From Antedon mediterranea (taxonomy: Eukaryota; Animalia; Echinodermata), in NCBI RefSeq assembly GCF_964355755.1, contig NC_092673.1, positions 13,860,948 to 13,924,947 on the forward strand: a stretch of DNA of 64,000 bases, in the 5' to 3' direction. The translations under genes were made by a program, and so were the position numbers. The notes under the pieces were generated by a model. It saw only the letters and a list, made by a program, of their open reading frames with translations, was not told where the DNA came from and did no database searches. Position 1 is the stretch's first letter. The number at the start of each line of letters is the position of its first letter. Positions 231 through 64,000 of the stretch are shown here, piece by piece.

Positions 231-2202
231 TAGGTATCCCAATGAAGCGGATTTTCGTTATGGCAATTTTAACACGTTCGTGAAATTTCAAAAAGTGACA
301 TGTCTTTGAAGTTAAAAATATACTATTTCTTATGTAGCCATGTGAATAAAATTTATATGTCTAGAAAGATCTTGTTTAAGATTTTATTTATATATATTTT
401 TAATCTATGTTTATTAAATATTTTAATAGAAAATGCAAGTTAAAAAGCCGGCGAGCCGAAATCCGCAGGCTAAAAATAACTTCGGAAAACACCTACCCAT
501 TTTCAAAACACGATCGCTCGGCGACCATAATAGGTGGTGGAGTAATTTTTGTTGCATGTTATCAGGCTTTCAATACTCTTTATTTTGATATGTAAATCGG
601 TTATTATTATTATGTACATCCGCCTCAAATGTCAATTTTTCCGATAAAAATTAAATTTTTTAGTCTTTCTCATTATCAAAATCTGGGGAATTTAGTATTG
701 AATTGAAGCTAATTTATATTTCTGTTTGATAAACTACATTGTTTTATTTGTCTTTGCGTGGTCGTCGTGCGAAGAGGCCAACAAGACCAACCACTTAAGA
801 AAATAATCCCTATCGAAAATAAAAGTATTTACCATTTTCCTTGCAGGGAGATTCAGTTCTCAGCTTATTACTAAATTACCGTCGCCCAGGAAATTTGCAT
901 GGTATTGGTATGCATGTATTAGCGCGTTAAATTATGATTGGATACCCCCACAGTGGACTGTTCCATTTTCGGAACTAGTCTTTCCTGCACACGAGGCATG
1001 GCGAAGAATGTCGCTTCTCATAGAATATTTGCTTCGAAACTTCAATTTTACCGATTTATTCAAGTATTTAATAAGTGGAGTATTTATCAAGCTACTATAT
1101 AAAGCAAGTACGTTTGGAATAAATGTACCGAAGGAATTTAAGAAGCTTTAAATTTGCTATGCAGCGGCCGTAACCCATTATATGTAGGCGACCGAAAGGC
1201 GCTTTTGACAGGGTTGCCGTTATATGTATACGCTGTATCTTGGCCTAATCGTGATTTCGTATTTCAATTTAAAGTGCACCTTAAGGTTAGAATATTTGAA
1301 AAGGAAATAAAATTAAACATATTAATATATACTATTGAAGTAATTACTTTCCTCCCGATATTTCTTCGGCAGAATTTAGTGGTGTTAGGCTTTAGGCCTA
1401 GGCCTATATAAACTTAACTTGTAGGAGGCGCGGCCGAGTTTACGCCCGGAATGGAATCGAATGCATAATAAGCACGGGCTTAATTCTAATTTTGAGCGGT
1501 TTGAAAATCAATTAAAATAATATTTATGATTATAATTAAAAATTTAAATTCTAGAATTATAAAAAAATGTATACTTACGAAAAATAATAACCAAGAACCA
1601 ATAGCCACACAGTTTTTTACCACAATATATATTTTTTTACATTTTAACATTTTTTAACAATATTTATGTTGTATTTCAGAAATACCTACCTGTCAATATA
1701 AATAATCTCACTAAAATACACATTACATTCTATGCAATGCAAAAAAAAAAGAAGTCAATTCATACACTGGTTCAAAAGTTACAAATCATTTAAAGACGGG
1801 AACTTTTTGAGCATTTTTGAGACATTTGGAAAAAATTAGCGCAAAAAGCCCTAAGACCAATTTTGGAGGGCGATATTTCCAAAAGAAAATTCGAGGACCT
1901 CCCCAAAAAAAATAGTCTTGTACAACTCTGTGGTATCTATGGGTTTAGCAAAAATTAGAACTTTCAAGTTATTAATATAAAAGTTATAACCCTTCAAAAA
2001 TGGTTCCAAATATAATTGAAAAAAATGCCATTTTTCAACCAAAAATCATCGTTTTTTGGCAACTTCAACGGACGATAACTTTTGAATGGATAATCCGATT
2101 TCAATCATTTAAATTGCAAAAGTTTATGTTCAGTAAGTTCCTATTGATTAACTGAAAAAAATAGTACCATCATTAATTTGAAATTTTACATTGGGATACC
2201 TA
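231..2202. mobile_element. Non-autonomous TIR DNA transposon (14-bp TIR, 7-bp TSD)
   Basis: TAGGTATCCCAATG at 231-244 and its reverse complement CATTGGGATACCTA at 2189-2202; TTTATAT flanks both ends (224-230, 2203-2209); no credible internal ORF. Confidence 0.75.
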
Positions 2203-2689
2203 TTTATATAGTATAGGCCGCCAAAACTCTCTCTGCATGAGCTGAAGGCCTACGGGCCCAATGTCGTCTCGTGGGCCAAATTAGGAAAACCGATGCGTAG
2301 GGCGGCTACAAAAATTGACGTCTTCTAGCTTTAGATAGGATTTTAATTACCGAACAATACATTGTTTGTTTGCATTGTTTATGCTTCTAAAGGCGATGAC
2401 AATGGTGTTTACTAACCCTATGAACCACCCTACGATCGAAGCCTAGATATTTATAATAACGAACAATACTTCGTAGGCTACGTTCAGAGAACAATGACCT
2501 ACGAAAGATTATGCGTAGATATGAAGCACTAATTTCCTTTTGTACTCTATTTACTTCTTAAATTCTTTCTAAGACTATAATAGCCTCTGCAATGAACCAT
2601 TTAATACATAGTACATTTATACATAAAATTACTCTACAAAAACACAATATAATTAAAATGTTCAAATATATTTTATTGATATATTATTA

Positions 2690-3446
2690 CAGTCGACTCC
2701 GCCTAAGTCGAATCTAATGGGACCGGTATAAAAATTCGAGTTACGCGAACTTCGACTTACAGATTTGCCAAAAAAAAATGCTAGGTTCACTCACTAGCCA
2801 CGCTATGGCTAGGCCTAGTGGACCCTGCCCTGTCGCGATAGTGGCCCACGCGATGAGCCTTCTTGAATTGAGTTTGCTTAGCTAGCTAGCTAGGCCTAAT
2901 AAATGCTAAGCCTCTTTATAGGCAATGATAAACTGTACTTTCTTTTATTGTTTAAGCCCGAAACAATACAAAAACGTATAATAAATACATTGCGGTTTTT
3001 ATTCGAAATCGGTAACCATTGTTTATTGCCATCTGTCTAGCACAAAATAGGTACCCACAAAACGCCGCTCAAGTTCTCAACTCTCAAACAACTCATACAC
3101 TATACACTAGCGCGAGTTGTAGGACACCGCCTATACTATACAACCTGCTTGAGAGAACCGATATGGTCCCACATTATCCCCTCTGTTGTTTGTTTATCGT
3201 TTCATCAGCTTTTTTAGCGCGTTGTTGCCGCGTAATTTGTGACTTCGACTTATACGATATAAATCACTAAAGAATGTGTGTATTCGGACCGCAAAAAGAC
3301 GTCGACTTAGACGAATTTCGACTTAGAAAAATTCGACTTACAAATAAAAATTACACAGTAATATAGGAAAGAATTGGGACTTTCCTAAAAATTTGACTTT
3401 TGCGATTTTTCGACTTACGCGAATTCGACTTAGGCGGAGTCGACTG
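2690..3446. mobile_element. Tc1/mariner-pogo-type MITE
   Basis: Perfect 24-bp TIR CAGTCGACTCCGCCTAAGTCGAAT at both ends; TA on both flanks (2688-2689, 3447-3448); many subterminal TTCGACTTA motifs. Confidence 0.9.
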
Positions 3447-4844
3447 TATTTATAATTTGTAATGTGGCCATACAGTAATTATTCTATGTGCATAAGCCTA
3501 GTTTGTGGTGTGTAAACAACAAAAATACTATCATGCTCTCCCCACCACCACCACCACACAACAGAGCACGGCGGCGCGTCCGTTCGTTCTTTGTAGATGA
3601 AACAATAATTTGGTAGAGTACATAAACTATCGGGGTGTTCACTATCCAAGAGCCTAATAAACATGCGAGTCGCCCAGTGTGTAACAACATTTTTTTATTT
3701 ATATCCCTAAATTCACAATCCGAAATCGCGTATTCTGTAATTTTACTCGACGCTGTTTGTTTTGACATTCATCACGGAGGCGAAATACATTTGCCAATTT
3801 GGTTTAACGCGAACATTTTGGGCTTTACAGTACTTCAATAATAGATGCATTAAAAAAAGACGCATTCCACTGAGTTTCTAACTATCTTGCTCTTTTGGTG
3901 TGCCATAGAAACGAAAATATAATGTTACTTTTTACGCCCGTACTTTTTATGTGATTCTTCTTCATAAAAAGTACTTATGAGGCCGAAATTTAAAGTTTGG
4001 TATTCACAATAAGTTACTTAACAAGTTTGGAGTCAAAAGGAAGTCGAAATAAAAACATAAAAACAGGAGCGAAACGTAAGGCCTAATAAATGTTGACTCA
4101 AAAATTAAACTTACCATCAGATCACATTCACTGCATGCAGCACGCATCGTCATCATGCAGTCTAGCCTAACTAAACTTTAAGTAAAAGTTTCGCTCCCAC
4201 AGTCAGTAGGGTTGTTTATTATTCTTAGTTAATTCTCCTCTCTATCAATTGGTTCCAACAACAATAAAGAACTTCCTCTAGTCTAGGTAGCAGACATCTT
4301 CTTGACATCTTCTTCTTCGGCTGGTTGGACCACCCTCTCCTCCTCGTCTCGTGAAATGATTAGAGTACACGTGTGGTGATGAGAGAGACAACAAAAATGT
4401 ATGGTTGTCTATGGGCGGCTAAAATGACCTTAAAATGAAAGACGACGATTAAGCGCTCTGAAGAACTGACCGAACTAAAATATACTAATTACTGATATAA
4501 TAATATAATATTGTTTACATTTATTGACGATACGATAATTCGAGATTTTAATATAATAACCATTTTTTTAATATATCAATTTTCCTGATAGGAGGGATTC
4601 TTATGTTCTGTTATTACATGGAGTAAACTCCATGGTTATTAATACAAAAAATATAGACAACTCTAATGCAAATCCGACGCCATCTATTGGCATTATTTCT
4701 TTATTTCCTGTCCTGTGACTGTTTTTTAGATCATGAACATTGTTGTGCACATTAAACGTGCCTACCTACATATGTTACAAAAATCGAATAAGATAATAAA
4801 TCTTAATAAAACAAATTTTGTTAAAGCTCACAACGCTAGTAAAT

Positions 4845-10289: not shown

Positions 10290-10655
10290 TGTAACGTTTT
10301 TCCGTCTCGCCTGTCTCTACTGTGTACTAATACTATAGCCCGGTAGCAATCTCGTTCGTTAGGCCTGGCTAGCCTAGTTATTTATTATAAAGTTAAAGAA
10401 AAGATGCTCGGCTTATTGGAAGGAGTGTGCTCCTTCTAATAAACGGACCACCGGAAAAGTCACACACCCCCTAGTTTATTCTACGGACAGAGGGGAAGTT
10501 TAATCTCGCTAGGCTAGCCTATCAGGTTCTCAGGTTCCTCTCGTTCAGTCTGCTCGCCGTAGGCCTACACACATATGACGTACACTAAATTAAATAGATA
10601 TTGCTAGGTAAAGAGGGTTTATGTTTATGACAGGTAGCGTCCGGTTCGGCTTCAC
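10290..10655 (-). mobile_element. Partial LTR of the Gypsy family at 18567-24854
   Basis: Begins TGTAACGTTTTTCC and aligns almost base for base with 24161 to about 24545. Confidence 0.9.
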
Positions 10656-11606
10656 ATGAAAAAAATTGTACAAAAATGGCTGCAAAGGCTTTATTTTTCA
10701 GTTTGACCTTTGACCTTGATTGCCTAATATCTCAATAACGCGCAATCTCAGAGATTTGAGAATGGGCTCAAAATGTTAAGAAAATAAATGTATTATTTAG
10801 TCTAATAGAAACTTTTTTCAAAAAATTACCATGAATTAAGCTTTTTTGACCCTTGACCTCTAATGTTTGAAAATGTCGCACAGCTGTTCCACCTATACAA
10901 ATTAAGTCTGGCGCCACCAACGCTTAAACGACGCACTGTGGAGTTAAGAATGAGTTAACAGTTGTATACAAACCACGTGTAAACAATAAACCCGGTCAGG
11001 CATAGAATGGCTGTAATTAAACAGCCAATAAAAATAAAGTAAAGATCAAGCTGGTTTAAAAAATATGAATATTCATTACAACAACTCTCGACGAAGCTAG
11101 AAATGTGTTGATATGGTCTTATCACGTGTGATTGAGGACAGGGGTGTTAACGAAAAGTCAAGCCAAAAATGCCAAGTCTACAACATTACAAACAATCTTG
11201 AAGAGATTATAAAGTAGGTGTAACTTTGTTTGCCCGTATATATTAAAACTGATTTTTTAAGTAGTAGTCATTGATATGGTTTGATAGTTAGTTATCTTGT
11301 GAGTGTTTTAAAAGGGTAGATAAGGAGAGTTGCTGGCTGAGATTTGTATATGGCCGTTTGCCAATATGAATATTTTCGGTCTAGGCTAGCCATTATAGTG
11401 GGCCTAGATAATCCAGTTGCAGTGTATTTCAAGCGCAAAGTACTCTGTATCATCACCCAATCAAGTTTAAAATCACCGGTACATAATGATGTTTTACCTA
11501 GCCTAATAAGCTCAGGCCTAGGCTTGGCCTAGCCTATCATTTTATTTTACATAGGCCTAGCTAGGCCTAGTTAGTAGTAGGCCTATTTATTTGGTTTAAT
11601 TATTTT

Positions 11607-11740
11607 AAATGTTGTAATTGGAAAATGTAAAATGTAATTTTCATGTTACATTACAATACAGTACTAAAGTACTGTATTGTAAGTACTGTATTGTAATGTA
11701 ACATGAAAATTACATTTTACATTTTCCAATTACAACATTT
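11607..11740. repeat. Fold-back inverted repeat, about 59-bp arms
   Basis: AAATGTTGTAATTGG...CAATACAGTACT (11607-11665) and its exact reverse complement (11682-11740). Confidence 0.9.
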
Positions 11741-12261
11741 TTTTTGCATTCATATTAATTTATTGTTTATTTTCTTCACTCATCAAAAAACACTTCATTA
11801 ACCGAGACCTCATCAAGGACAGCCCATTCCAGAGATGAAAGAAAATGTCAACTACAACGTTAACATAACAGTATTAATCGTATTATCACTGAATGGTTAG
11901 TATGTATATTAATTATAAAGTGCAATTAAAAACAAACAACTATTTGATTCTTGTCATGAATATTTGTACAAATATATAATAATACTGTAACTATCCAAGA
12001 TAGCAACATCAGCAAGTGTTTTCAAAACAATATTGATTATCTGATAAAACTCCTAGAAAGTAGGAAGCCTTTTACCAAGGTAAGTGAAACTTAGAAACAC
12101 AAGCACATCAGGAAAGATAAAAAATCACTGGCATATTCACATTCTTTCAATATCAGTTATATAATAATTGAACTTGACTAATTCCAAATAATGATTGAAG
12201 GAGCATTGTATTTTGAAATTATTATTATTAATCAATCTTCTATGACTATGTAAACACTTAC

Positions 12262-15200
12262 TTTACAGGCTCTATGTACATGATTTCCAACAAAACTCTT
12301 TCCATGGTATTGTTGGCGAGGAATTTTGTTTTTCCGTAAAATTTCATCCATTTGAGTAGCAAGAGGTCCAGTTCCAAATTTTAGGTCGTTGTTTAATGAA
12401 GTACGCTATTAGGAAATATAAAATGTGTATTAAAAGCGTTTAATTGAATTCATTTTAATTAACTACATTGTATTTATATTTACCAAGTCTTTAACTTCTT
12501 GATCTTTTAGATTGATCTGGTGTCCAAGCTGTGAAATGGTATCCGCATTATATTCACGTTGAACAAGTGACAACGAGAGTTGGTTGCGCAACTCATCAAT
12601 TTCTGCATCCAAAGACTTAATTTTGTCTGTACAAGAGTTTCGATTGGATGTGGCTTCAGCTACTTTTTTGTCAAAGTCTGGCAAAAATTCACCTGGAATA
12701 ATAGATTTTAAATTTATTTAGTCAAGCATTTACAAAGGAAGATGGCAACAGTAAAACAGATTTAAATTTCTGGTTTAAAAAAAAGCAATTCACCCTCATA
12801 TATTTGATTGGATGCATCCTGTCTCATATTAAAATGATGAGGTCCAGGTTATGTATGTCCTTTTCCAGCATGTCATACATTTTTTTAAATAGACCAAGCG
12901 ATATGTGCAAAGCTGGAATGGATACCTGGAAAATATAATTTTAATACTTGGAATTAATTACACTGACATATAAAGGTATGCATGCTATATTATGATTGTT
13001 ATTTTTTTGTTTTAATTTTTAAATATTTGCATGTCCACCATGTCAACACTTTGCGCATGCATCAAATAGGTTGACGCTTCAACCAGCTAAAAAATGGATT
13101 TATTATACTGTACATGTTGTGTCGATTAGAGGACATGCAAATCAAAACTCACTGTTTCAAAATGTCATAACTAAAATTCTATTTAACTAACGACTAATTC
13201 GCTTACCCTGTTTAACTCAATGTTGACCATGTAAGGTCTAATTACACTATTTGACACCAGCTTGCTTTTCTTTATGTCTTGGCCATGGTCTACAAATGAC
13301 TTAAAATCGCGATTATACGATTTCAGGCATCTGCTGCTCTGAGGTGCCCTGTTTTGCTTTATATCATCCTGGTTGCAATAGCAGTAGATGCAACTGTATT
13401 TTCCTATAGGAAAAACACAGCTAAAACATCTTAAAGATGCATTTTAATAAAAAAATAAAAAGGCAATACTCAATATTTTTAGCGGGGATAGTTTTTTAAA
13501 ATTCTAAATTATACAGCACATGAAAATCCCATAACAAAAAATTGTCTAAGGAACGTTTCAACAATACAATTAAATATTTATTAACTCGCAATTATTTACT
13601 CACCATTGGGGCCAACCAGTCCATATATTCGGGATGAAAAGTCGTAGTCCCCAAAACAAAAGATGTTATGAGTTCTGAAATATGAGTAAATTATAACCAT
13701 AACATACACTAGGTTTTATAAAAATTATACCATCACCTAATATTATGGATTAATTGTTCTGCTATACTGTACATTACCTCTTTGTTTTGGGTGAGACCCA
13801 CTGACTTCCATCTAATTCCATGACCTCATCGATCACTAGGTTTAGTCCCTTTTCTATGTTGATGGTAAGGTCTGGGGCTTGAAATATCAGAATCACGATG
13901 ATGTTCTGCAGTGCGTTCGGCTTTTCCAAACCACAAATTTGCAATTCGAATTTGGTGGTGTCACCACCCTTATCACCACCAAATTTGATAAAGATCTCGT
14001 CATTAGGCCTATTGAAGGTGAGTTCATCTGACCTAAAATAGCATACAGTACAGTACAATTATAAAAATGTAGTGTAGAAAGCAAGACATTTTTGTAATTT
14101 ATGTATTTTATCCTTTCAAAACTAAATGTGTTTTTTATTTCATTGATTTAAATAAATACAATTGAAAAATTAATCCTATGAAAAACCTACATGTCATATT
14201 TATTCAAGTAGTCGTATACAAGTTCTTTAATCTTTGTTAGTCGTACGACTGCTACCTCTTCTAGCACCAGCCCTCCGATAGAGGTAGCACAATCTCTCTT
14301 TAGAAACATGTATTCTAAGGATTTTCTTACAATCCTACAATCTCTTCTTGACATATTCGCATTTTCCGCTCTGATGCAAATAAACCTGGACAGAATCTGA
14401 AAAAAAAATACTGCATTTACTTACTGACTGGGTTATCATTAGTTTGGATAACAATTATTATAACTATTATAATTTACATACCTCCGCAGTGCCCGTTGTT
14501 GACTCCAGTTTATTCTGCATTTGTTCATCACTGCTAGGCATTTTTTGGCATCCATTTGGGGATAAACGAAATTGATTGGAATGGCTGGTGGTGGTGAGGC
14601 TATTGTCTCGCTGACAAGTTTTAGTGGCTGAATTTGAAAAACATAAATATATTCATCATTACTATTAGTATTAATTATAATATAAAATGATATAATATTT
14701 ACTGTATTTGCCAGCCTGTATATTTGTATAGACTTTATTACTGTATATAAAGAGTTTTTTTTTTCATTTACTACATTACTGTATACATGTTATATTTTTA
14801 TATGTACATTGAAAAAATTAAATTTATGAATTACAATTTATTAATGTTTTTTAATGTACATCTTTGTGTTTATTTATATCAAGTTGGCTGTAAAACTTAC
14901 TCGTCCTTGAGTTGTGAGGGACATTTTCCCATCAGTTGCGTTCATATCGAACTTAGGGCGAGATAAGTACTGATCTAGTTAAATTTTACGAGAGCGGTAA
15001 TTCGATTAAATTCATTAAATTGCGTTCGACGGCTCATGTTAGGGCGAGATAACTTAAGCATCACATGCTCGCGACCCCGCCGACACAAACAGGAAGTACA
15101 GTTGAACAGGTTAGGGCATTTTATTGTGGGCTATTCCTTGTGTGTATACGCACTCATTCTACCACCTTCTTCTTCTTTTTCGAGTACTGCTTAACGATCC

Positions 15201-17259
15201 GTCGAAACAATGCTTCCTCAGTTATTATTATTATCGGGGTTTTTACCTATATTTTTACAAATGATTAATGACGACACGACGTCTGAACTAGATGAAGGTA
15301 CTGCTTTGCTGCTGTTTGCGTTAGTTGAGTTCATTTCTAGCTGCATGGAATCCCAGCGAATGATGCGACAACAACGACGGCTCAGATACCTACGATATGC
15401 CGAGGAACAGCGCGAACTTGGGGAGATCGTGTTTCTTTTACATACAAGCCTAGATGTAACATTTTTTGTCTTCGCTTTTACTTTTTCGGACATGTTGAAT
15501 GCGGTACAGATGTATTGAAATAAGTTTTAAAATAGTAATATGACAGATCGTCGCTCTCGGTTAACATGTGGTTCAGAAATAAAGCTAATTTGTTGATGTT
15601 TATATGTCAAAGTTGAAATTTGCTTTAATCTGATTGGTGTATTGGTGACCTCCAATTCTGAATGCCTCATGCTGTGTTAATTACCTTAATCGTTTTCTAG
15701 CTTTACCAGTGGATTTACTATTCCGTCGAGGCGATGGCCTTGACTGACCGTAGTCGAGGAAATTCCTTCATCTCGCCCTAATAATTCGTTCACATCGAAG
15801 TTATGGCGACATCATCTCGTTAATCTAGTAAATTTATCTCGCCCTAAGTTCGATATGAACGGGCCTATCAACTATTTCTTTTCTCACAAGGCCATGTGCC
15901 ATGTTCTTTAGTTCTGCTGGATACACATGTACTTGATTTGTTGTCGCACTTATTTCTTTAACAGCATTCACAATCGTTGCAAATGCTTGTTCCTTTATAG
16001 ATTTACAAAAGTGGCTTTCTGTTTCAGCTAGCACCAGCTTCAGATTGCAGTTAGTGCATTTTAGAGGCACCTTTAATATGGACTGTTCCACAATCGGTGG
16101 AATTGACTGAATGTTGTGATGTCGCAACTGAAGCATTCAATTTCTCCTCTTCCAACTGCCTTTTAAAGACTTTCTGTATGCAGAAATTGCAATAAAAATG
16201 TTGACACGGTGTCTGTATACTGTCAACAGAAAGTAGATTGCCACAAACATTGCATTCATATATATTATCGGCATCATCAAAAATACGATATTGGCGATTT
16301 AAAGCGAGTTCGCTTTGTGCCGATACAAAATTTCCCCATATGTTACGGGAATCAGGAAACTTGTATTGTTTCAACCGTCTTCCTTGTCTCAATTGCTGCC
16401 TCAATAAGTAGCAAGCAAGGCATTTCGATGTATGTAATTTAGCTAATTGAAAAAATGGTGATATGGTCTGTCCTTTAATAACTTTTGAGTGACATGTTGA
16501 ACAGATCCATTCAAAATGTATGTCATTTATTTGTAGTTGAATTTTCATATTCTCACTTTTATACTTTTTTTCATTTTCTTTAATTTTTTTACCACAGCAT
16601 TGACAGATGGAGTCTATAGCCCTCTCATGAAACTGCTCCTCCCTGTAAAAAAATTATATCATCAATTTATGAATTTTAAAAAAAACCAATTGGGCGCAAC
16701 AGTGCAATGTTGGGTTTCGTATTATTAGTTATAACTAATTAGTTATATGCTATAATATACTATCATGCCTACACTGTCAGACTGGTCTAGGCATATAGGC
16801 TAGTAGTAGTATTATTAATATTTAATTATATTTATAATATTCTAAAATCTAAATAATAATTTTATTTTGTCAACAATAAATAATGCCAAACTGTAGGCCT
16901 AGAAAAAAACAAATAACTATGTTTTAATAATATTAAATATCAAATTTTCTAGCGTTGGGCCTAGCGTCATCCTAGGCCCCCACCTATACCGCTCTTGTCG
17001 CGGTCATCACCTAGGCCTGAGCGCTCCGCTGAAATCGCCGATACGCTGATCGTATAAAAAAGGGTTGCACATTACAGGATTTTACCAGGTTTCTAACCAG
17101 CAACTCTATTTAAACCTTTGCTCAATTGAATCATATACAAATTTTGTTTTACATAATATTTGCTGTTTATCTACAAAAAATTACATTTAAACAAAAACAG
17201 TAAAATCATACGATCATTTTGTTCACTTACGTTTGTTTACTATTTGTAGCGCTAGCCAT
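12262..17259 (-). pseudogene. Chapaev transposase, at least 10 exons, disrupted (Chapa/CND zinc motif, RING, ZFA, DDE core)
   Basis: Approximate exons with GT-AG ends: 17259-17231 (MASATNSKQ, phase-compatible with the next exon); 16642-14909 (HERAIDSICQCCG, DIHFEWICSTC, HTSKCLAC, RING CNVC..CQHFYCNFC..CFSC, CTNC..H; split by a MITE and frameshifts); 14633-14481; 14398-14191; 14032-13797 (IKFGGDKGG); 13675-13601 (FGDYDF..YGLVG); 13404-13208 (CIYC); 12925-12793 (PALHISLG); 12692-12466; 12405-12262 (RQQYHGKSFVGNH). The catalytic Glu region was not found. Confidence 0.85.
14939..15865 (+). mobile_element. Non-autonomous PIF/Harbinger-like element inserted in the Chapaev transposase exon
   Basis: About 28-bp TIR CGTTCATATCGAACTTAGGGCGAGATAA; right end ...GAACGGGCC, left end eroded by a few bases; internal TIR-motif copies near 15040 and 15770; ORF 15210-15518 resembles a Harbinger transposase N-terminus. 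Confidence 0.7.
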
Positions 17260-18387
17260 AGTATTTCCTGGTTTCATGTACTGTACTAAATGTGATTAAA
17301 ATCTGCTTTATAAAATTTTTTTTATATTTTAAGCGTGGTCAAACAATAACATGTTTATGTTTTAACCAAATGAATTTAATATTGAACAAAAACAGTATGT
17401 TAAGAATTATTAAACTAATAAGTACTACAAGGTGGAAAAAATAGCTATCGATCTCGCGAAAATACGATTGATAGCGAAAATCATAATTTGCGCCGTTGCT
17501 CGAGCGTCGTCTGCTAATATTGAGGGCGCTTGACTTTTATTAATATTTATTACATGATGGAACAGCTGTGGTCGATATCTTGGTAACTATTTGTCCTAAA
17601 AAGTTCAGTTTGGTGTCAAATTGTTCAAAATATACACATTTATATTTGCTCTTACAAAATATTTTGTCAGAATTCAATTGGAAATGTCAATTTGAGCTAC
17701 AGTATGTTCCATCGTTTTGCATATATTTAGCAACTAATACTCTATACAAAGAGAGAGGGGAGGTGGTTGCGGTGGATGGAGAGACACATACTTTTTTGAC
17801 ACAAATGTCTGCACTATAAAATGTGAAGAAAAAAAATCGTATCACTACCATATTTGGGCACATCACACCTTTTTTGTTAAACTAGTTTGATAGTGTAGAC
17901 AAACATGTGAAACATATGTGTCTCTCCATCCACCCCAACCAACTCCCTCGCTTTTCTGATGCTACTGCATGCATCTATAGACATCAAAATGGCCGGAATT
18001 GTACTGGAAAGTTTTTAGCTACATTTGAAAATAGGTCCCAGAGGATGGGTGTATTGTAATGTTATCACAATTATGGTACAATTGTTTGTACTGGGAAAGT
18101 TTCAAAACTACATTTCAAATATTGGCTAATAACATCACATGCTATTAAAGATATACTTATTGTCCCCCTGACAATGTAATTTTTACAAATATTTTTGTTG
18201 AATGTTTTAATATAATTGATTTAATATCACATAATAGTTATTCACTATTTCACCAAAAATTGGATTGGAAAAAAATGGTTAAAAGTTAATGTGGTTTTGG
18301 TTAAATTAACTTTATTTTTTCTTTATAAAAGTGATATTTACTTTTTTTAGATTAACTCTTTGATTAAACACCTCTTCCAATGCAGTC

Positions 18388-19199: not shown

Positions 19200-21330
19200 T
19201 CAATTTGTTGTACGTCTCCGCTCCGCATCACAGTAATACTATTACTAATAGTGCTGGTTTCCACTACTTTCACCACTTGGCACACAATGTTGTCCTGCAG
19301 GGCGTTGCTTGCACGGGTACGTGTAGAAGGTCGGACGGGGTCGGTAACTTTATAGTATCGTTTTCTTCCTGCGAACTCAGTTTGCTTCGTTCATCTGGCG
19401 ATAAAAGAGCCGGCTTTCCCTTCGGATATTCTTCGTACCTTTCGGACGGGTTCTTGAGTCTGTAATAATATCTCGTCCATCAGGGAGCTATATCCTGGAG
19501 ACAAGGCCAACACCGGCAATTCTGCCATTATAGATGGCAACTCGGCAACATCGGCCGGCTTCGGTTGTTGGTGACGAGATACAGGTATTGACTCGGGTTT
19601 ATTCCTTCGATGCTGGTGGTGGTTTCATTCTTCGTGTCGTACTTGGTCCGCTTTTGTGTGGAACTTTCCTCCACAAAAACTGCATTCAAACCGCTTAGGG
19701 TTGCCTTCACCCTCGTATCGTTTTAACAGGTCAAAATGTAGTATTCTGAATTTCGGTCTAGGTCCTAGGCGTATCCGGTACGTTACTTCTGACAATTTCT
19801 TTTCAATGCGGAAGGGCCAACGCCATAAGCTTTCCAACTTTGGAGATACCCCTCTACGTTTTGTTTTATCGTACATCAGGACGAACATTCCTTCCTCCAA
19901 CGTCCTACCACCGGATCGATGATCGTACAACTTTTTCTGTCTTCTCGTACTTTTTTTAAAAACCATTTTGGCTCGTTCTCTGGCCAATTCCATCCAATGT
20001 TTCATACGAGACACAAAATCCTCCTCAGGAATATGATTTATTGGAGATATCATCAGGTCCACTGGTACCGTTGCCTCTCTTACGAACATCATCAGCTGGG
20101 GTGTTTCCCCTGTGGATTCTTGTGGGGTGGTTCTGTATGCAAACGTAGCGTAAGGGAGGAACTCGTCCCAGGTTTTCTGGTCCTCTAGAGGTTGTAACAT
20201 TATTGCAATTATATTCACTAACGTCCTGTTAAATCGTTCTACGAGGCCGTCCGATTTGGGGTTATATGGGGTAGTTCTGGTTTTGTGTATGCCTAATAAC
20301 ATACACATTTCTTTAATAATTGTTGACTCGAAATTTCGTCCCTGGTCGGAGTGTAACTGTTGCGGTATCCCGAACCTTGGCACAAACCCTTCCACAAAGC
20401 ACTTCGCAAGGGGATACGCCTCCATCCACTTGGTCCAATAATCGCCGACTACTAACACGTACTTATTACCACGTTCCGATATAGGAAATGGTCCAAGAAT
20501 GTCCATTGCGACTCGTTTAGTGGTTCTCGAACAGGCCACTGTTGTAGCTTAGCTTTCCTACGTTCTGGGGGTGATTTGCGCTTTGCACAGGGAACACACA
20601 TTCGAATATGCGCCCGTACATCTGCATGCATTTTGGGCCAATAAAATCGTTGTTTTAATTTTCCTATCGTCTTATGACAACCCAGGTGACCACTCGTAAC
20701 TCCGCCATGAGCTTCGTTTATTAAACTCGTCCTTAAAGTATGGGGAACTACAACTTTCCAGGTACTGCTGCTACTGTCGCCATTCACTGCCTCCCATCGC
20801 CGACATAACACTCCTTCTCGTATCTCTAGTACGTCCCAAATTATCCAATAAGGTCTATTGTCGGGATTCACGTCCTCCCATTTAGGGCGATCAGAATTGG
20901 TCAGTTTTACTTGGTACACCCATGATATAGACTCATCATCTAACTGTTTATTTTTCAGGTCGGTAGCTGGTACTTCAGGTTCTAATCTAGTTAATCTGGC
21001 ATAGGCTATTTCGGTAAACTGGTCCTCATTGTCACGTCCACACTGTTTACAAACACGTCTCGACAATCCATCTGCATTTCCATGTTTGTTTCCGAGTCTG
21101 TGAATTATGATAAACTCGTACTCACTAATCACTAATCACCAGCGGTCCAATTGTCCCTCTTGATTTTTAAAATTTAAAATTTAAAATTTAAAACAGAGTA
21201 AAGCATGGTCAGTCCGGATAGTAATCTTTCTCCCGTAATAGTATTGTCGGAAATATTTCAGGAAATACACAAGAGCTAAAAGCTCTCGTCTGGTAACGCA
21301 ATAATTTTGTTCAGCCTAACTAAGCATTTA
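19200..21330 (-). pseudogene. Gypsy pol relic: RNase H, integrase zinc finger (HHCC), rve core, C-terminal extension
   Basis: NYCVTRRELLALV..RTDH (RNase H); NADGLSR; AHGGVTSGHLG..RFYWPKM..CVPC; VAMDILGPF..LHSDQGRNFES..SDGLVERFN; frameshift near 20540. Confidence 0.92.
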
Positions 21331-24929: not shown

Positions 24930-26202
24930 TCTATGTGTAATGCGACTTCCTGTGAGGATTTCAGCATCTATTACATGATCATGGAGGTGCTTAATGTATA
25001 GTCTTGTACCATTACATAGTTCTTTGGTGATATCTAAGTTGCGTAGTAACATAATGATTGCACCTTGTTTTAAAATTAAGCGATGTGTTGGCATACCAGT
25101 TGGTGTGATGGAGTGAAGAAATTCTAAAGGGTAGTTGTTTGCTTCCAGTTCATCATGTGTAATAGCCTTGTGTCTGTACTTGTATATGTTTTTGGCAAGC
25201 CTGGAAGTTTGTTTATAACTTTATCATAAAGTGTAAATGTAGTTTCATTAGGGGTGTAAGATTAGAATCATCTACAATGCTTTCACGTTCAGATAAGATG
25301 TTGCACTGATGTGGAATTTCTATGGATGACGGTGGTGCTTTGGTCACCTGACTACGAAGTTCACCATTGCCTAACTGAAGGAGCCATTGTGCATACTGCT
25401 GTTCATTTTCATTTGGCCTCATATTCTTTGTGAGTTCAAAAATCTTGAAATTGTGCCATAGTGAAGATCGCTTAAGGCAGTTTTCAATGATTGCTGTTTG
25501 GGATTGTTTGGGAAGAACAGGTAACACTTGGCGAAAGTCACGTCCCATGAGAACAACCTTTCCTCCAAATGGGACATGTGTTTCAGTGATATCTTTTAAC
25601 ATTTTATCAATTGCTAAAAGAGCATTACTTGGGATCATTGAAGCTTCGTCAATAATGAAAAGGGAAACTGAACGGATGTAGTTGGCATATTTTGATGTTG
25701 GAGAAATGTTGCAAGTGCTGGTGTCTAACACAGGAACAGGGAGTTTGAAAAGATTGTCCTCCAGCAAGAAGTGTCGCGGCAATTCCTGTCCATGCAGATG
25801 ATGCAACTTTAATAGATTTACTTTGACAATAAGTAATAAGTGATATGTGTATACCGTTGTTTTGCCACTGCCACCTGGACCATTTAAAAAATAACATCGG
25901 GTGAATGGTATATTTTGATCTTCAAAAAGTGAATCCAGATCTTGAGTCACTTGGTCAACTGCGATGCGTTGGTCTTCATTGAGACGCATTAATTGTGTGT
26001 GGGATTTTTCAGTTTCGGTAACAATATCGAAGTCGTCTGAGGAGAGATTTTGAATATCGAGCTGGTTAATATCAGGTAGTCCTAAGGTTGTTAAACTTGT
26101 ACCATTTTGTTGCAAAGACCTGTCTATGTCTTGGAGAGCTAATTGTGTCGCTATTTGGAGGGCATACCCACGATGTGTATAGTCTTTGTCACACAGCCGC
26201 AA
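24930..26202 (-). pseudogene. Helitron RepHel PIF1-family helicase fragment
   Basis: GPGGSGKT (Walker A), IIDEASMI (Walker B), PFGGKVV..DFRQVLPV, LTKNMR, WLLQLGNG; then YPLEFLHSITPTGMPTHRLILKQGAIIMLLRNLD..CNGTRL; frameshifted; Rep domain absent. Confidence 0.92.
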
Positions 26203-44520: not shown

Positions 44521-46308
44521 ATGATGGCGAACACAACACTTAAATCGTTTTTGGCAATTTATTTGTTGTACGAAGAAGATAGTGATGGCGATGATGAGGA
44601 CGATCAGCGTATTGCCGTCTGTGCTGTTTTACTAAAGTCAACGTACGTAACGTAGGATATTCATATTCATATTCATTTATTATCCAGAAAAATAAAACAA
44701 TAATACAAAAAGCATAAATTACATAGAACAACAACAAGCAGAGAAAAAAACGCAGGACACTATCCTGCGTTTTTTCTCTGCTTGTTGTTGTTCTATGTAA
44801 TTTAATTTATTTAGCAGCCTATGAAAGCAAAACAAAAAAAAGTCACGTAGGCCTACTCAGCTCACTCATGCTCCAGTGGCAGAGCACGGCGGTGGGTGGG
44901 CAATTTAGGAGGGCCAGAGTGGGTCTGTTATAGTAGGCCTACCTTCCCGATCATAAGCGTACAGGCTGTACTACAGCCCTACATTGGTCTACTCAGGCAT
45001 ATTATGCCCTAACCTGCCACTGCACCTAAACCAAGTCTAATGGTACCTTACTGCGGCCTATATATTATTATTTAGTGACTATAAAATAGCATAAAATAAA
45101 ATTATAACCTACTTCCTATACTGTAGGTCTGTATAGAAATAGTATAGTGGTAGTATATGCATAATACGGTTATGTAATAAAGGATCATCATCTAAAGTAG
45201 GCCTTAATACTACATGCTTACATATGAGGTTAATCTAGACTAAGATTATTCCGATTAAAATGGTTTTGATTTTTGCAGATCAGGTAGGAGACCTCGCCAC
45301 CGGCAGATGTTTTATATAGAGAATGTCATACATACATTTAGACTGGATGAGTTTAAAACATTCTTTCGTGTATGTCGAAGCAGTGTGGACATCTTACTGG
45401 AATGGATTAGTCGTACCTGCCAAGATGAACATATCGCAGGAATTACTGAAAGAGAGTCAACAGGAGGAATGCCACAGGTACCCTTAGAAAAGAGAGTTTT
45501 AGTGTTGTTGTGGTATTTGGCCAGCTTGGATAAATATTCATCGATAGCAGATAGATTTGGATTGAGTGAAAGTACTGCTTGTGATGCCACAAGAACACTA
45601 GCTAACTTTATATCCCAGCATCTGTTGGATAAGATTATACAGTGGCCCTCCCAGAATGAATGCATAGAAATCTCCAGCATATATAGAGAGTTGAAACATT
45701 TTGACGGTGTTGTTGGGATGATAGACGGAACACACATACCAATTAAGCAACCTTCTGAACGTGGCACAGACTACTATAATAGGAAAGACTTCTACTCTGT
45801 AGTTCTACAAGCAGTGGTAAGAGAAGACATGCAATTTACTAATGTTTACACAGGATGGCCTGGAAAGGTTCACGATTCAAGAGTTTTCAGAAATTCGCCT
45901 CTCTTTGAAATTGGTCCCCAACTCTGCAATGGAAACCGACATATTCTAGGTGACTCTGCTTACCCAAACCTTGTTTGGTGTCTTGTTCCTTTTCGGGATG
46001 ATGGGCATTTAACCCCAGCTCAAAGAAGATATAATAAGACTCATGCTAGTATCAGGAGTGTTGTGGAGCGTGCATTTGGCCTTTTGAAAGGCCGGTTTGT
46101 ACGTCTTCGCTACATTGATCAAAGGCACATCAGAACAATTGTAACAACAATTTTATCTGCTTGTGTTCTGCATAACATATGTATTTTGAACAATGATGAA
46201 TTTCAAGAGATTCTAGAAGGTGAACATGTGGTGCCAGAATTTGGTGATGGACATGAAGCAGCTGTCAAGAGATTGACAATAGCTAGAAATTTGTTACAGA
46301 AGGATTAA
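44521..46308 (+). CDS. PIF/Harbinger (HARBI1-like) DDE transposase, two exons, about 383 aa, apparently intact
   Basis: Exon 1 44521-44642 (phase 2, GT donor) joins exon 2 from 45279 (TTTTGCAG acceptor) in frame with ORF 45307-46308; FRVCR, IADRFGLSEST, IDGTHIPI, YYNRK, WPGKVHDSRVF, GDSAYP, VERAFGLLKGRF, ACVLHN. Confidence 0.9.
44715..44804. repeat. Hairpin with about 42-bp arms attached to a LINE-like 3' tail in the Harbinger intron
   Basis: TAAATTACATAGAAC...CGCAGGA, loop CACTA, TCCTGCG...TGTAATTTA; preceded by (TATTCA)n-TTTATT at about 44658-44680. Confidence 0.85.
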
Positions 46309-51967: not shown

Positions 51968-54900
51968 ATCAATTTTTCAAATCCGTTTTGTGTTATTTAG
52001 ATGACATACTGATTTATTCTAGTAGTTTTGAGGATCATCTAGAACACATTGATGTTTTTTTCAATCGACTATGAGAATTTGGACTGAAGATAAAACCAAG
52101 TAAATGTGACTTATTTTGTCCAAAAGTTAAATATCTAGGACATATTGCAACCAGAGATGGAGTTGCAGCAGATCCAGAAAAGCTGACTGCAGTAAAAGAT
52201 TGGCCTGTACCTTCCACTGTTAAAGAGTTGCGTTCATTTTTAGGTTTTTGTTCGTTTTACCGACGATTTGTACCTGGTTTCTCGCAGATAGCTGGACCTC
52301 TACACAACCTAGTTGCAGAGTCTTTGAAAGAGATTAAAGAGAAGAAATTTGTTAATTTTAAATGGAGGCCCAAACACCAAAGTGCATTTGAGGTATTGAA
52401 GACCAAGCTCTGTTCAGAACCAGTACTTGCTTATGCAGATTTTACCTTGCCTTTCGAAGTAGAAATAGATGCATCATTTATTGGGTTGGGAGCGGTGTTG
52501 TCACAAGTACAGGATGGGAAAAGACGTGTAATCGCATATGCCAGCCGAACGTTACGAGGTGCAGAACGAAATATGAAAAAGTATTCTAGTATGAAGCTGG
52601 AGATGCTGGGAATGAAGTGGGCAATTTCAGACAAGTTTCGTGATTATCTTTTAGGAAACAAATTTATTGTGTTTACAGACAATAATCCGTTGGCTCACCT
52701 TAACTCTGCCAAGTTAGATGCAGTTAGTCAGCGATGGATTAGCGAGTTGTCATCTTTTAATTTTGAAGTTCATTACAAGCCTGGGAAGAACAATAAAGCA
52801 GCAGACGCTCTATCTCAAAGAGCTCACAGAGAAGACCCTGTTATAACTTCCGAAGACTTCCGACAGACAGCTGGAATGACCAGTCTCCCTGAAAGTTTAG
52901 CTAATCACAATTTCAGTCATATAAACATCCAAACACATGTAAAAGCACTCAAGGCGGTACCCGTATTTCCTGGCTACGACTACCAACAGCTGGCTGAATT
53001 TCAACGGAAAGATTCATCCATTGCAAGACTTTGCCACTACATTAGTCTAAACCGTAAACCAAACCCTGACGAGAGAAGCAATGAAACCGAGGAAGTTCGA
53101 CTACTTCTACGGGAGTTAGATCAAGTCAGAGATGATCTACTTTACCGAGTGAGCGCTGATGGCGACCAGTGGCAATTCATTCTACCCGACGTATTAAGAG
53201 AAGATGTCATGAAAGCCTGTCATGATCAAACAGGTCACCAAGGAGCAAACCGAACTTTGGGTTTAATACGCAAACGTTGTTTCTGGCCGAAGATGTATGA
53301 GAACATAACTTCATGGTGTGAACAGTGTGACCGATGTTTAAAGGCTAAAGTTGGTCCTAAAGTCCGGGAACCATTAAGAAGTATCGTCGCTTCAAAACCA
53401 AGTTGTTGCTGTTGACTTTACTTGAGAAGGACTCTACCGGAAAAGAAAACGTGCTCGTGATCACTGATGTCTTCTCCAAGTACACATTAGCTGTAAAGAT
53501 ACAGCAAAGATACTGGTAAGGGAATGGTTCACCAAGTTTGGTATTCCTCAAAGACTCCACTCCGACCAGGGACGGAATTTTGAATCTTCACTTATTCGTT
53601 CACTTTGTACAATGTATGGAGTAACCAAGACAAGAACAACACCGTACCATCATGAGGGAAACGGACAAGTAGAACGATTCAACAGAACTCTGCATGATCT
53701 ATTGAAATCACTACCAAGTAATCAGAAACGAAGATGGTCCGAACATTTGCCTGAAGTACTTTATGCCTACAATGTAGCTGAACATTCATCAACTGGCTTT
53801 TCTCCATTCGTCTTGATGTTTGGAAGACAACCTAAACTACCTATCGTAGCGTAGCGGTAACTAAAGAGATAAATGATTGGTTAGCCTCGAGTATGGAAAC
53901 CATGAAGATGACGTATGAGAAAGCAGGGGAGCGTCTCAAACAGGAAGCAGAGAACCGGAAGAAGATCTACGACCAGAAAGCTAAAGAGAAATCGTTGGCA
54001 ATGGGTACAAAAGTCTTTACCAAGTCGCATCCACTAGGGAGACACAAGATTGCTGATGAATGGGACCCAGCAATATTTGAAATTATATCCAGACCTGGAG
54101 GTAACACTTCTTACACCGTTAAACGTGTAGATGGTACTGGTGGAAAGAGAACTGTTCATCGTCGAGAAATAAAACCATGTCCTTTGGTGTACCTACAACC
54201 AGAGCAAGAAAATCAACAACCAATGTCCTATGTGTTCGATGACTCGCAGTCCGATTCTGATGGCGTTAGTTCAGACGATACACCTCGACGCAGCATCCGA
54301 CTAAGGAGGAAGCTTAATCAAAGATGTCAATCAGTACATGGATCCGATGATATGCACCACCAACATCTAGTTAATATTAATGATATTTTGATAAGTGTGC
54401 GGACCAAATGTAAAATGTTTCTGCACATTTAGTTTAATCTTACATATTTTATTTCATAATATTAAGTTTGAGGACAAACTCAGCTTAAACAGGGGAGTGT
54501 GGGGATTTATCTAATCATGTGATAATTAAATACTTCCCTCTATAGGTGTTAATGCCCCCTGTAACAGTCTTTTTCAAATTATTTGCTTTCTTTTGTATTC
54601 ATGAACCGGTCAAGGAAGCAGATAGTTTTGTCTCTTATGTAATTAAAGATCTGATTAAAAGGTAATTACTCTAGACCTTTTGTTTTGGGTTTAACCTTGA
54701 CTCATGGAATGTGCAGTTAGGAAGCCTATTGAATAGTATTGTGTTATAATCTTGGAACTAGGATGGTTATGCCACATAATGTTATAATATACTTTTGTGA
54801 TAAACCTTCTTTGTATTAACAAATTATGTTTATATAGATTTAGTTAGAAGAGAGTTTCTAGTTAACAGTTTGTATAACAGTTCACACTTGATTAATTTGT

Positions 54901-60297: not shown

Positions 60298-61575
60298 GGC
60301 CAAATAAAAAAAAAAACTTGTTAAGCGTCACACCCTCATAAATTTTCAGGGGCGGGGGGACGGTTTTTTTTTTGTTTTTTTTACTTTTTATGGAGGTATA
60401 TTTTTGAGCGATGGACATTTTGGCCCACTTTTTTTTAGGACGAAACGTCAAACTTTTTAAATGCGAAACAGAACAAAATTGACTATAGTATGAAATATTA
60501 TTGTCAATGACAAAATTGAGTTTTGTATTGTTTATATCCAGACGTAATTAAAACATTAAATTTAATTGCCACCGAGCGAAATTGTAGGCCCTAGGCTAAT
60601 CCGTCCAAGCTGCCACCCCCGCCTCGCTCATCGGCCATGGTCCGCCGTCTCTTGCTCGACTCATCTATCCAGGAAATTCCCTATATCGCGAGAAGCATGA
60701 TGTTGGTCTCAATATACTAAATAGTGGGCTGATTTTGAAAACAGCTTACGGCATTTCTTAAGTGAATTTTTATTCAACGTATTCATTCTTCTTTGATGAA
60801 TCCCTTGCCAATTGCTGTGTAAATCAGTATTTAAAGTTGTTATGCGAAAAGTGTGTGTAATTATTCCACAGGTAAACCATGGCCATGCATATGAAAACCA
60901 ATCGCCCAACAGGACCTCGTGGTGTGCCGATCTCGAGCATCGTAAACAAAATTGGTAGAGTCCATTAAGTATGGGGTGTTTCCTATTTACGAACCTATAA
61001 AAAACGCGCTTCGACCACTGTGTAGGCAAAGTATTTATTTCGTTAAATCCCTAAATTGATAATCGTGTATTCTGTAATCACGTGACTGATGATGTAATCC
61101 TCAGCGACGTACTAAATGCACGTGATTTAATGTGTTGGGGAAAAAGCTTGCTGTTTACCACATTACATGATTCGCGGTGCTATTCGCGTTTCCTTGACGT
61201 AAATCGGCGGCGTGTAAATGAAACAATTGTTTTCACCAAATTGTCGTTGTCGACATAGAGCGATCGGTGGCTAGCTAGCGTGGCTAAGCCATGGAGTTAC
61301 CTCCATGGCTAAGCTAAAGAAGTACGTATTTTTTAAAAATGACACCAGCCTAGCAAACATTTGCTAGTTTTGAAATTTTCAACTAGCAATTATGAAGAAT
61401 CTACTAGCAAAATGATAGTTTGCTAGCGTGAATTTTGAGCCCTGCTCTGGAGCTGGGCCGGGCCGCTGAACTTTCCGTTGTATATAGGAAAAAAAAATAA
61501 ATAAATAAAAAGAGAGGCGGCTGGATAATCAGGAGCGGGCGGTGACGCTTAACAAGTATGTTTTTTTATTTGGCC
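60298..61575. mobile_element. Non-autonomous Zator-type (or Harbinger) element inserted in Gypsy 3 gag
   Basis: TIR GGCCAAATAAAAAAAA..ACTTGTTAAGCGTCAC; TAA TSD (60295-60297, 61576-61578); excision restores GLDVYNAFKF. Confidence 0.88.
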
Positions 61576-61609
61576 TAACGCATTTAAATTTGAAAATGAA
61601 GCTGAGAAG

Positions 61610-64000
61610 ATGAGATTAAACACAGTTATGCACAAATTTGAGGAATATTGTAACCCCAAGAAAAACATTACATTTGAACGACACACTTTCTTTCTTAATA
61701 TATTACCACTGAGAATGTATAGAGCTATGTTTCCTAAAAACATGAGCAATAATGTACCTAATGATAGATATGTTAACAAATCTAATGTAAAAGTCACAGC
61801 GTATAACGGAGCACAAATCAAACATTATGGTTACATACACATCCCATGTTACTTCAATAACTTACACACAAATGCAAAGTTTTATATTGCAGAGGTACAG
61901 GGACCAGCTATAATGGGACTACCGACGCTAAAGACTCTGAAGATAATACAGATAAACTATGCAGTCAAAGTAAATGACAAAATCAAGGATGTAGAGGACA
62001 TAAAAAGACTCTATCCAGACAGATTTGAAGGCATTGGCAAGTTTGAGGGTACGTACAAAATAGTTATAGACGAAACGGTACCACCTGTCATACACGCACC
62101 AAGGTCATGTCCATTAGCGATAAAAAATGACATAAAGGCTGAATTGGATGAAATGATGAGATTAAATGTCATACAGAAAGTAGAGAAACCAGTGGATTGG
62201 GTTTCAAGTTTGGCCTACTCACAGAAACCAAATGGGAGATGGCGGATATGTTTAGATCCTAAGGACTTAAATAAAGCTATAAAACGCACATACCATCACA
62301 CACCAACCCTAGATGAGATAACACATAAATTTAGTGGGGCAAAGTTTTTCTCTAAACTAGATGCACGACATGGATATTGGTCCATAAGACTTGACAAAGA
62401 ATCCAGTTATCTTACCACATTTAACACTCCAGGGTTTGGAAGATTCAGATTCCTAAGATTACCATTTGGACTGAATGTCAGCCAAGACGTTTTTCAACAT
62501 AAGATGGATCAAATATTGGAGAAATGCATCGGAGCCACAGGCATCGCAGATGACGTTGCTGTATTTGGGAAAACAGAAGAAGAACATGATCGAAACTTAA
62601 TGGACCTGATGGAAACCGCTAGAGAATATGGGCTTGTATTCAATGCAGAGAAATGTGAAATAAAGCGACCGCAAATAAATTTCTTTGTTAAAGAGTTACA
62701 AAGTTTCCTAGGCATCGCCACGTATACGAGTCCCTTCTGTCCCAAGCTGTCAGACAAAACAGCACCCCTCCGAGAACTTCTGAAAAAAGATAATGTATTT
62801 GAATGGAATGGCTCACAACAAAAAGCATTCGAAGAGATAAAGTCAACAATATGTAACCAGACAACACTGACCTATTTCCAACCTAACAAAAAGTTGAAAC
62901 TACAAGTGGATGCATCCCTGATTGGAGTGGGAGCAGCACTCATACAAGACGAAAAAGTTGTTGCGTTTACATCAAAGGCATTAACAGAAGCGGAACAAAG
63001 ATATGCGAACATTGAAAGAGAACTACTGGCGGTAGTGTACGCAGTAGAGAAGTTCCACACATATGTGTATGGAAACTCATTCATTGTGGAATTGGACCAC
63101 AAACCGTTAGAGATGATCCAACTAAAAAATCTAATGAGTGTACCACAAAGACTACAAAGACTACTAATGAGACTACAAGGATATGATCTGACAATCAAGT
63201 ATAAACCAGGCAAAGAAATGGTCCTGCCAGATGCCATGTCTAGATTAAACCCTATAAATGACAGCCAAATTGAAGAAGAAGTAAAGATACAACTGTCATA
63301 TTTCTCAGAGTCCAAAGAAGAAGAAATAAGGCAGAAGACCAAGGAAGACCCAACTCTCATAAAATTGGGAAGTATAATACAGCAAGGCTGGCCAGACAAA
63401 CTAAAATCTGTACATAAGACAATAAGACCATACTTCCCATACAGGGATGAACTCACACAACAGAGAACGGAATAATACTAAAGGGTAACAGAGTAGTGAT
63501 CCCAGATGTCATGAGACAGGACATCCTAAAACAACTACACACATCCCACTTAGGCATAACCAAGTGTCAACTGATGGCTAAAACATCAATCCATTGGCCC
63601 AGTATTAATGAGGAAATAGAAAACATGATAAAAGCATGCCCATCATGCCAACAACACAAACACAAACAACAACATGAAGAGAAAAATCCCTACCAAAGAA
63701 TGGGAAATACTCGCAGCTGACCTATTCTACATAAATAGAGTAGAATACCTCCTAATAGCAGATTATTACACCAAATATCCAATCATAAGAAAAATACCGG
63801 CAGACCAATCAAACAGTGAAACAGTTATATCGATAATAAAAAATGTCTTCTCAGAGTTTGGGATGGTTCAAGAATTGATTACCGACAACGGACCACACTT
63901 CAACAGTGAACAATTCAAACAGTTTAGGAAAGATTGGAAATTCATACACACAACCACAAGTCCTCACCACCATGAAGGAAATGGATTCATCGAACGAATG
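61610..64000 (+). pseudogene. Gypsy 3 gag-pol relic (internally deleted gag/protease, RT, RNase H, integrase)
   Basis: WVSSL..RICLDPKDLN; FSKLDARHGYW; RLPFGL; IADD; LQVDAS; IERELLAVV; DHKPL; LH.SHLG..WP..CPSC; TDNGPHF; frameshifts near 63475 and 63700. Confidence 0.92.

Follow-up and report, generated by a model that had tools for sequence, protein, structure and literature searches.

Long and short ends in a decayed Chapaev transposon of Antedon mediterranea and in related elements

The origin of the 12/23 rule of V(D)J recombination is debated, the candidate sources being RAG2, a Transib seed and an early RAG transposon (PMC8355894, PMC10629977). In RAG1, the nonamer-binding domain (NBD) enforces the rule (PMC10629977). 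Ends that resemble a 12-type and a 23-type recombination signal sequence (RSS12 and RSS23), with no RAG2, have been in print since 2005 for Transib elements (PMC1131882, PMC8355894, PMC9435367), among them Transib5, Transib2_AG and TransibN1-3_AG (PMC1131882) and the subgroup I Transibs (PMC9435367). Here we describe a Chapaev element at positions 10879-17570 of a 64,000-nt stretch of DNA from the echinoderm Antedon mediterranea (NC_092673.1, 13,860,948 to 13,924,947; hereafter the window, in whose numbering positions are given). Its two ends carry an inner block at distances from the terminal repeat that differ by 9 nt. We read it, with a probability of about 0.6, as a decayed Chapaev whose 9-nt-offset end design likely descends from an ancestor of Chapaev, Transib and RAG, and whose transposase dimer, when intact, likely paired a short with a long end.

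Chapaevs are described as having CAC...GTG termini, 3-4 bp duplicated at the target site (target-site duplication, TSD), and a transposase in which a Chapa zinc finger and then a RING finger precede a DDE (Asp-Asp-Glu) core with the motifs C(2)C, LH and H(3-4)H (PMC4411706, PMC4079192). They are single-gene elements with the N-terminal zinc fingers, the RING and the predicted core fold of RAG1. The window element resembles the RING-type Chapaevs in its CAC...GTG termini, 4-bp TSD, Chapa and RING fingers, PF06918, and the two Asp motifs and CxxC that it keeps of a DDE core; it differs in that its lineage lacks some 50-60 residues after the GRP motif. With Transib it shares a single transposase, no RAG2, and bipartite ends about one turn apart. 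Canonical Transibs, however, have a 5-bp TSD, a core-only transposase free of Chapa and RING and, in the 2005 families, an A-rich nonamer-like block, whereas the window element combines a 4-bp TSD with Chapa, RING and another motif.

ProtoRAG (PMC8289069) and PflRAGL-A (PMC10629977) likewise combine bipartite asymmetric ends with a RAG1-like N-terminus and core fold, but both require RAG2L and have a 5-bp TSD; the spacers are 27 and 31 nt in ProtoRAG, and 10 nt apart in PflRAGL-A, which has an AT-rich nonamer. ProtoRAG prefers unlike ends only moderately (PMC8289069). AanRAGL of Aureococcus anophagefferens has a 13-bp terminal block and an inner block with the same 9-nt spacer difference (4 and 13), but it encodes RAG2L, has a 5-bp TSD, and keeps its blocks far nearer the terminus; its inner block starts CCTCAA, a word also present in the window's long end, which may be chance (PMC9435367). 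V(D)J RSSs, the partners of RAG1/RAG2, share the CAC start with Chapaevs, and the inner motif of the window's relatives sits at the RSS nonamer positions, 20-21 and 31-32 (layout from PMC1131882); Chapaevs differ in having no conserved heptamer past CAC, no consensus nonamer and no RAG2. We found no published description of long/short bipartite Chapaev ends in the literature searched, which did not extend to Repbase Reports 2007/2008 or the mollusc N-RAG-TP paper. A 2026 preprint links the zinc fingers of Chapaev and RAG1; the terms TIR and asymmetr are absent from the excerpts of its main text, the supplement not being covered (10.64898/2026.01.24.700457).

Two unlike ends in the window copy

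The element measures 6,692 bp and has perfect terminal inverted repeats (TIRs) of 13 nt: 10879-10891, on the plus strand at the end 3' of the transposase gene, is the reverse complement of 17558-17570, the minus-strand TIR at the end 5' of the gene. The terminal 13-mer does not recur in the window, and neither end has a second copy there. GTCG flanks both termini, at 10875-10878 on the left and 17571-17574 on the right. In three of the four public sequencing runs compared, all three from one sample, contigs of the empty site join 10874 directly to 17571 and skip 6,696 positions, the element plus 4, which confirms both the boundaries and the 4-bp TSD. The insertion of the window copy is ordinary.

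Comparison of the ends places an inner block at 10904-10920 (plus strand) and another at 17520-17536 (minus strand), identical at 13 of 17 positions and the best 17-mer match between both ends. The block stands 12 nt from the TIR at the end 3' of the gene (spacer 10892-10903, plus strand), and 21 nt from it at the end 5' of the gene (spacer 17537-17557, minus strand). We call these the short and the long end. The initial annotation had reported this layout together with the shared 13-nt start and the GTCG duplication, and all of it holds. It had also proposed nonamer-like A tracts, and A-rich 9-mers do lie 11 and 23 nt past the first 7 nt of the ends; as nonamers they are weak, and the window ends match the motif of related elements poorly. 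Five of the seven heptamer letters agree from the element start, so a canonical heptamer plus nonamer is not what the ends carry. A further 7-nt match between the ends, at offset 11, escaped that annotation (10928-10934 on the plus strand, 17504-17510 at the long end).

By itself, the end-versus-end match of this copy is merely borderline, being reached by 1-10% of controls. When 2,000 dinucleotide shuffles are compared over 47 nt, 21 attain 13 of 17 identities, and with 2,000 random pairs from the window the number is 42; over 67 nt the counts are 45 and 102 of 2,000. A separate shuffle test gives 8 of 300, and a gapped-score test 309 and 528 of 5,000. Such figures, in an old and broken copy, would suit a private indel or drift in a TIR that was formerly symmetric and longer, as would the two copies of the word TAATAAA in the long spacer, which lie 10 nt from each other and look like a duplication. 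Support for the block design comes instead from other copies and from relatives.

Sister elements and distant relatives

Other copies were viewed through contigs of five public runs from two samples, of which runs X2-X5, possibly the source of the window, are not independent of it. One contig, from another study's run, covers 17457-17570 without an indel in the spacer; its flank is unrelated, which makes it a second insertion that retains the 21-nt spacer. In three runs of one sample, four, one and three contigs match just 17502-17538 (minus strand), a longer version of the long-end inner block that includes 17520-17536, or part of it (31-37 nt), with 1-4 differences. Further inward they are unrelated to the window element, and their depth reaches 984, against 50 for the window copy; we call them sister elements. 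In their consensus, read by eye, the terminal motif lies one base further out, which makes a 22-nt spacer. Its letters agree with the window's at 9 of 19 positions without gaps, and the doubled TAATAAA word is absent.

The asymmetry of the long end is therefore not private to the window copy. Since the second insertion keeps 21 nt, the sisters keep 22 nt with no doubled word, and relatives show a motif at the same two positions, a private indel or drift is largely refuted for the long end, and as an origin of the offset as a whole it is very unlikely. A private indel was one of two outcomes that the initial annotation had named as fatal to its proposal, the other being an inner block not conserved across the family; neither was borne out, with the comparison of copies covering the long end, where the sisters keep the block. 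A near-constant block at a near-constant distance, amid divergent spacer letters and interiors, points to continued selection on both.

More distant relatives were drawn from a scan of metagenome contigs that gave 80 loci. Ends were chosen by their first 12 nt alone, which yielded 50 ends, or 32 after removal of near-copies, with some families counted twice. A blind motif search of the 32 non-redundant ends returned GACACTTAG, whose starts fall within two 3-nt windows ~10 nt apart at 24 of the 32 ends, compared with 9-13 of 32 in 12 shuffles. A matrix was then trained on 7 ends from a single clade; its peak falls at 18-20 or 28-30 in 18 of 21 other ends, compared with 40 of 255 control CAC-N4-GTT sites. 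L082, fetched after the motif search, peaks at 19.

Seven families have both ends paired, with offsets of 10 (L020, L025), 11 (the L032 family, L050) and 8 (L011, L056), and one unclear (L030); families were counted from the tree, and single-linkage grouping had fused three. The L032 family offers three separate TSD-flanked insertions, in which CACTTAG begins at 20 and 31, the nonamer positions of RSS12 and RSS23. The spacer difference thus stays near one helical turn: 9 nt here, 10-11 in four of the seven paired families and 8 in two. Two conserved blocks around a variable spacer of fixed length are found at the long end of the sisters and at both ends of the relatives. Complete relatives measure 4.4-4.9 kb, and each flank of their transposase is <700 bp long, which leaves no room for RAG2.

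The window lineage forms a long separate branch in a quick tree of search hits, at ~24-32% identity to these distant Chapaevs. The AGT tail of the motif, which the relatives have at 25-27 and 36-37, is shared in register by the window ends, where it stands at 27 and 36. A GCGC word after AGT is common to the window, L038, L015 and L060; the AGT..GCGC core of the window's short-end block, at 27, recurs at 26 in L038 and L015. In the 5' end of L038 (66-110), ACAAAAAGT stands exactly 12 nt past the first 7 nt and is followed by AGT..GGCGC, the same word as in the window's short end; the two proteins are 28% identical.

A long/short geometry across the Chapaev family appears well supported by these comparisons, and the long/short architecture on which the 12/23 rule builds probably arose before RAG. 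If Chapaev ends are widely long and short at the nonamer positions, the design would predate the RAG1-RAG2 pair. The initial annotation had inferred asymmetric paired ends without RAG2: the same design does recur in distant Chapaev families, and it is not new for the superfamily, because the RSS12/RSS23-like ends of Transib were already published.

Several points weigh against this reading. The 12-nt spacer of the short end rests on the window copy and on contig breaks at 10880, where contigs starting in two runs hint, weakly, at a sister that shares 10879-10909. The sister contigs were selected by matching the block, few of them reach the terminus, and a 30-letter view of their loose ends stops short of the terminal CAC; what they document is the long end. 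Both position windows for the relatives were picked after the blind motif result, which makes the held-out test half blind. Offsets of 8 and 9 deviate from one full helical turn, L030 has no clear offset, and the motif of L018 lies 5 nt further in. A single clade (38-77% identity) accounts for most of the paired families, and these share ancestry. Scored with the motif of the relatives, the window ends do poorly, their best values being -1.3 at 24 (long end) and 3.8 at 41 (short end). Polarity varies as well: in the window, L006, L007 and L015 the short end lies 3' of the gene, and in most other families 5' of it. In the three relatives the short-end positions 3' of the gene are 5197 (L006), 3558 (L007) and 2869 (L015), and polarity has flipped at least once.

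Could the inner blocks instead be host-factor sites, placed for expression or DNA bending rather than to let the transposase pair the ends? A YY1-like factor binds the TIRs of ProtoRAG (PMC7481187). In several short 5' ends TTCCGG occurs near 50-60; we take this word to be an ETS-type promoter motif, and it would fit such a role. Both ends nevertheless bear the same inner motif, at two set distances from the cut site, and some families have the short form 5' while others have it 3'. Distance from the terminus fits this better than promoter position, and we consider host-factor placement quite unlikely.

A RAG1-like transposase and the nonamer-binding position

The minus strand of the element encodes a transposase that is split into several exons and has both a RING finger and PF06918. 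Its closest proteins are named crinoid proteins, which by themselves suggest a crinoid as the probable host, and word-index protein searches returned P0001 as the sole match. P0155, a full-length crinoid relative of 890 residues, is 70% identical in the core, and the Antedon assembly it comes from has at least four annotated copies, spread over three sequences; the window copy covers P0155 residues 2-722 and lacks the C-terminal 170. The likely first coding exon (17231-17259) would consist of an ATG, 29 nt in all, and a GT donor. Exon 2, as we model it (14901-16642), holds the Chapa zinc finger, the RING and another zinc finger; it contains two frameshifts, near 16165 and 16120, and is split by a 936-bp nested insertion. 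Exon 3 (14482-14627) opens with the Pro of the GRP motif, and the helix of the dimerisation domain comes 24 codons later. Decayed, putative core exons follow at approximately 12253-14400, placed by tblastn and PF06918 and matching P0155 residues ~315-722, with the first catalytic Asp motif near 13970, the second Asp motif near 13640 and CxxC near 13380, all on the minus strand.

Both Asp motifs, CxxC and LH are thus present in the window; the part with H..H and the Glu is missing here and present in P0155. Because the transposase lacks the part bearing the catalytic Glu and also carries frameshifts and the insertion, the element is non-autonomous, and this copy is dead, which the initial annotation had not recognised. 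Its N-terminal Chapa zinc finger followed by RING, together with the CAC termini, 4-bp TSD and PF06918, bears out the Chapaev identity given in the initial annotation; the assignment is by described features, with trees that comprise search hits only and no named Repbase transposases. No RAG2-like gene of the kind that marks a RAG1L-RAG2L transposon was found inside the element: 10879-12463 holds no open reading frame (ORF) of 80 aa, and 5 searched of its 14 short ORFs gave no RAG2 or kelch match, a decayed remnant being conceivable.

A profile of the family, built on 26 rows, matches RAG1 99-384 (E 2e-27). The structure model of P0155 (mean predicted local distance difference test score, pLDDT, 80.8) matches the RAG1 core best (Foldseek E 6e-17; Z 26.9, root-mean-square deviation 4.2, 462 aligned), followed by amphioxus RAG1L (6b40, Z 24.9) and Transib, at a core identity to RAG1 of 14-16%. 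RAG1 residue 460 aligns structurally to residue 287 of P0155 and residue 413 of P0005. From the GRP/GxP motif to this point there are 22 residues in P0155 and 73 in P0005, and from GRP to the catalytic motif 135 in the window lineage versus ~180-196 in other Chapaevs. The ~50-60 residues that other Chapaevs have after GRP are missing from window exon 3, P0155 and P0002, and exon 3, like P0155, has ~22 residues between GRP and the equivalent of RAG1 460; the window lineage thus lacks most of the segment at the position of the NBD. An overlooked exon does not account for the gap, because exon 3 starts at the Pro and meets the next helix after 24 codons. P0002, a second crinoid protein, is equally short. 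An intron just ahead of the Pro of the GxP motif occurs in L011, L025, L030, L036, L050 and window exon 3, and so in many Chapaev families.

Other Chapaevs have a segment of 75-80 residues at the RAG1 NBD position, helical in the model. A profile of this segment found no RAG1 chain, and its likeness to an NBD, another point against the reading above, appears to lie in position, length and modelled helical content only. A homodimer prediction for the segment of L001, alignment-free, scored 0.00 and is evidence for neither side.

How would such a protein read the two ends? In an intact element the RAG1-like core of the transposase dimer would bind both CAC termini, and a second DNA-binding part would hold the inner blocks. 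An offset of about one turn would keep both blocks on the same DNA face in an asymmetric synapse, favouring a short plus a long end. In most Chapaevs the second part is probably the helical segment at the NBD position. In the window lineage the GRP hook and ~22 residues seem to be what remains of it, with the block altered and further in. Since this lineage lacks most of the segment, a RAG-like read-out is not simply assumable for the window element; with the segment mostly lost and the block changed, another reader is probable, be it the hook, the N-terminal zinc fingers or a host factor.

The offset may also be a relic, inherited by a transposase that, after loss of the helices at the NBD position, reads the terminal 13 bp only and leaves pairing ungoverned. 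The short stretches after GRP given above (22 against 73 residues, 135 against ~180-196) are what this account expects, as are the poor scores of the window ends on the relatives' motif, and amphioxus RAG1L depends little on its own NBD (PMC10629977). The sisters, by contrast, keep the block nearly intact and the spacer within 1 nt despite diverged letters and interior, and we judge a relic unlikely.

Our preferred reading, an inherited long/short design with probable pairing of unlike ends, can be pushed further. A single protein would then pair the ends without RAG2, the 12/23-type geometry would predate the split of Chapaev from Transib/RAG1, and the crinoid-type lineage would still enforce it through a second, RAG-independent read-out of the rewritten block. 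We regard this fuller claim as possible but doubtful. Either a strict rule or a mere preference for short/long pairing would be compatible with sequence data. What the locus adds is a lineage that retains the offset although most of its NBD-position segment is missing. Intact single-subunit enzymes, some of which have the segment (P0005 type) while others lack it (P0155 type), form a natural test set, which spans offsets of 8, 9, 10 and 11 and both polarities.

Further features of the element, its relatives and the window

The nested insertion (14931-15866) has inverted repeats of 28 bp and what looks like a duplication of ATC, is missing from the contigs of three of four runs, and is multi-copy by depth; its 107-aa ORF has no Pfam match. 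The 3' interior of the element (10935-12252) contains a hairpin at 11607-11740, whose inverted repeat is perfect over 59 bp and encloses a loop of 16 nt; depth is raised here, as a small repeat would explain. A high-copy repeat lies near 11994-12242. On the sense strand, this interior shows no remnant of the C-terminal part of the transposase. The best C-terminal match, at 11157-11234, is on the opposite strand (E 0.02) and has no catalytic motif; we treated it as chance, with an inverted remnant as the alternative.

Among the relatives, matching TSDs are absent in L020, L041 and L056, and L081 and L083 gave no usable ends. The apparent 5' end of L060, whose TIR differs and which lacks a TSD, was left out of the pairs, and the 5' candidate of L043 is probably no end. 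Three protein scans and one pattern scan of viral contigs found no relatives. L082 (5584-9046), a Chapaev whose short 5' end is typical, sits in a bacterial metagenome-assembled genome, on a contig of 360 kb, and is either misbinned eukaryotic DNA or a transfer.

A multi-copy host repeat surrounds the window element (10500-10878 and 17571-17950), with a depth of 841-3,867 at the empty site, and a very high-copy repeat begins near 17840, to the right of the element. Elsewhere in the window, a 349-aa open frame at 45259-46308 reads like what we take to be a PIF/Harbinger transposase. Frames that we presume to be retrotransposon-like pol frames and a helicase-like frame lie at 19625-21135, 52075-54432, 61553-63475 and 25213-26202, in what is presumably a repeat-rich window.

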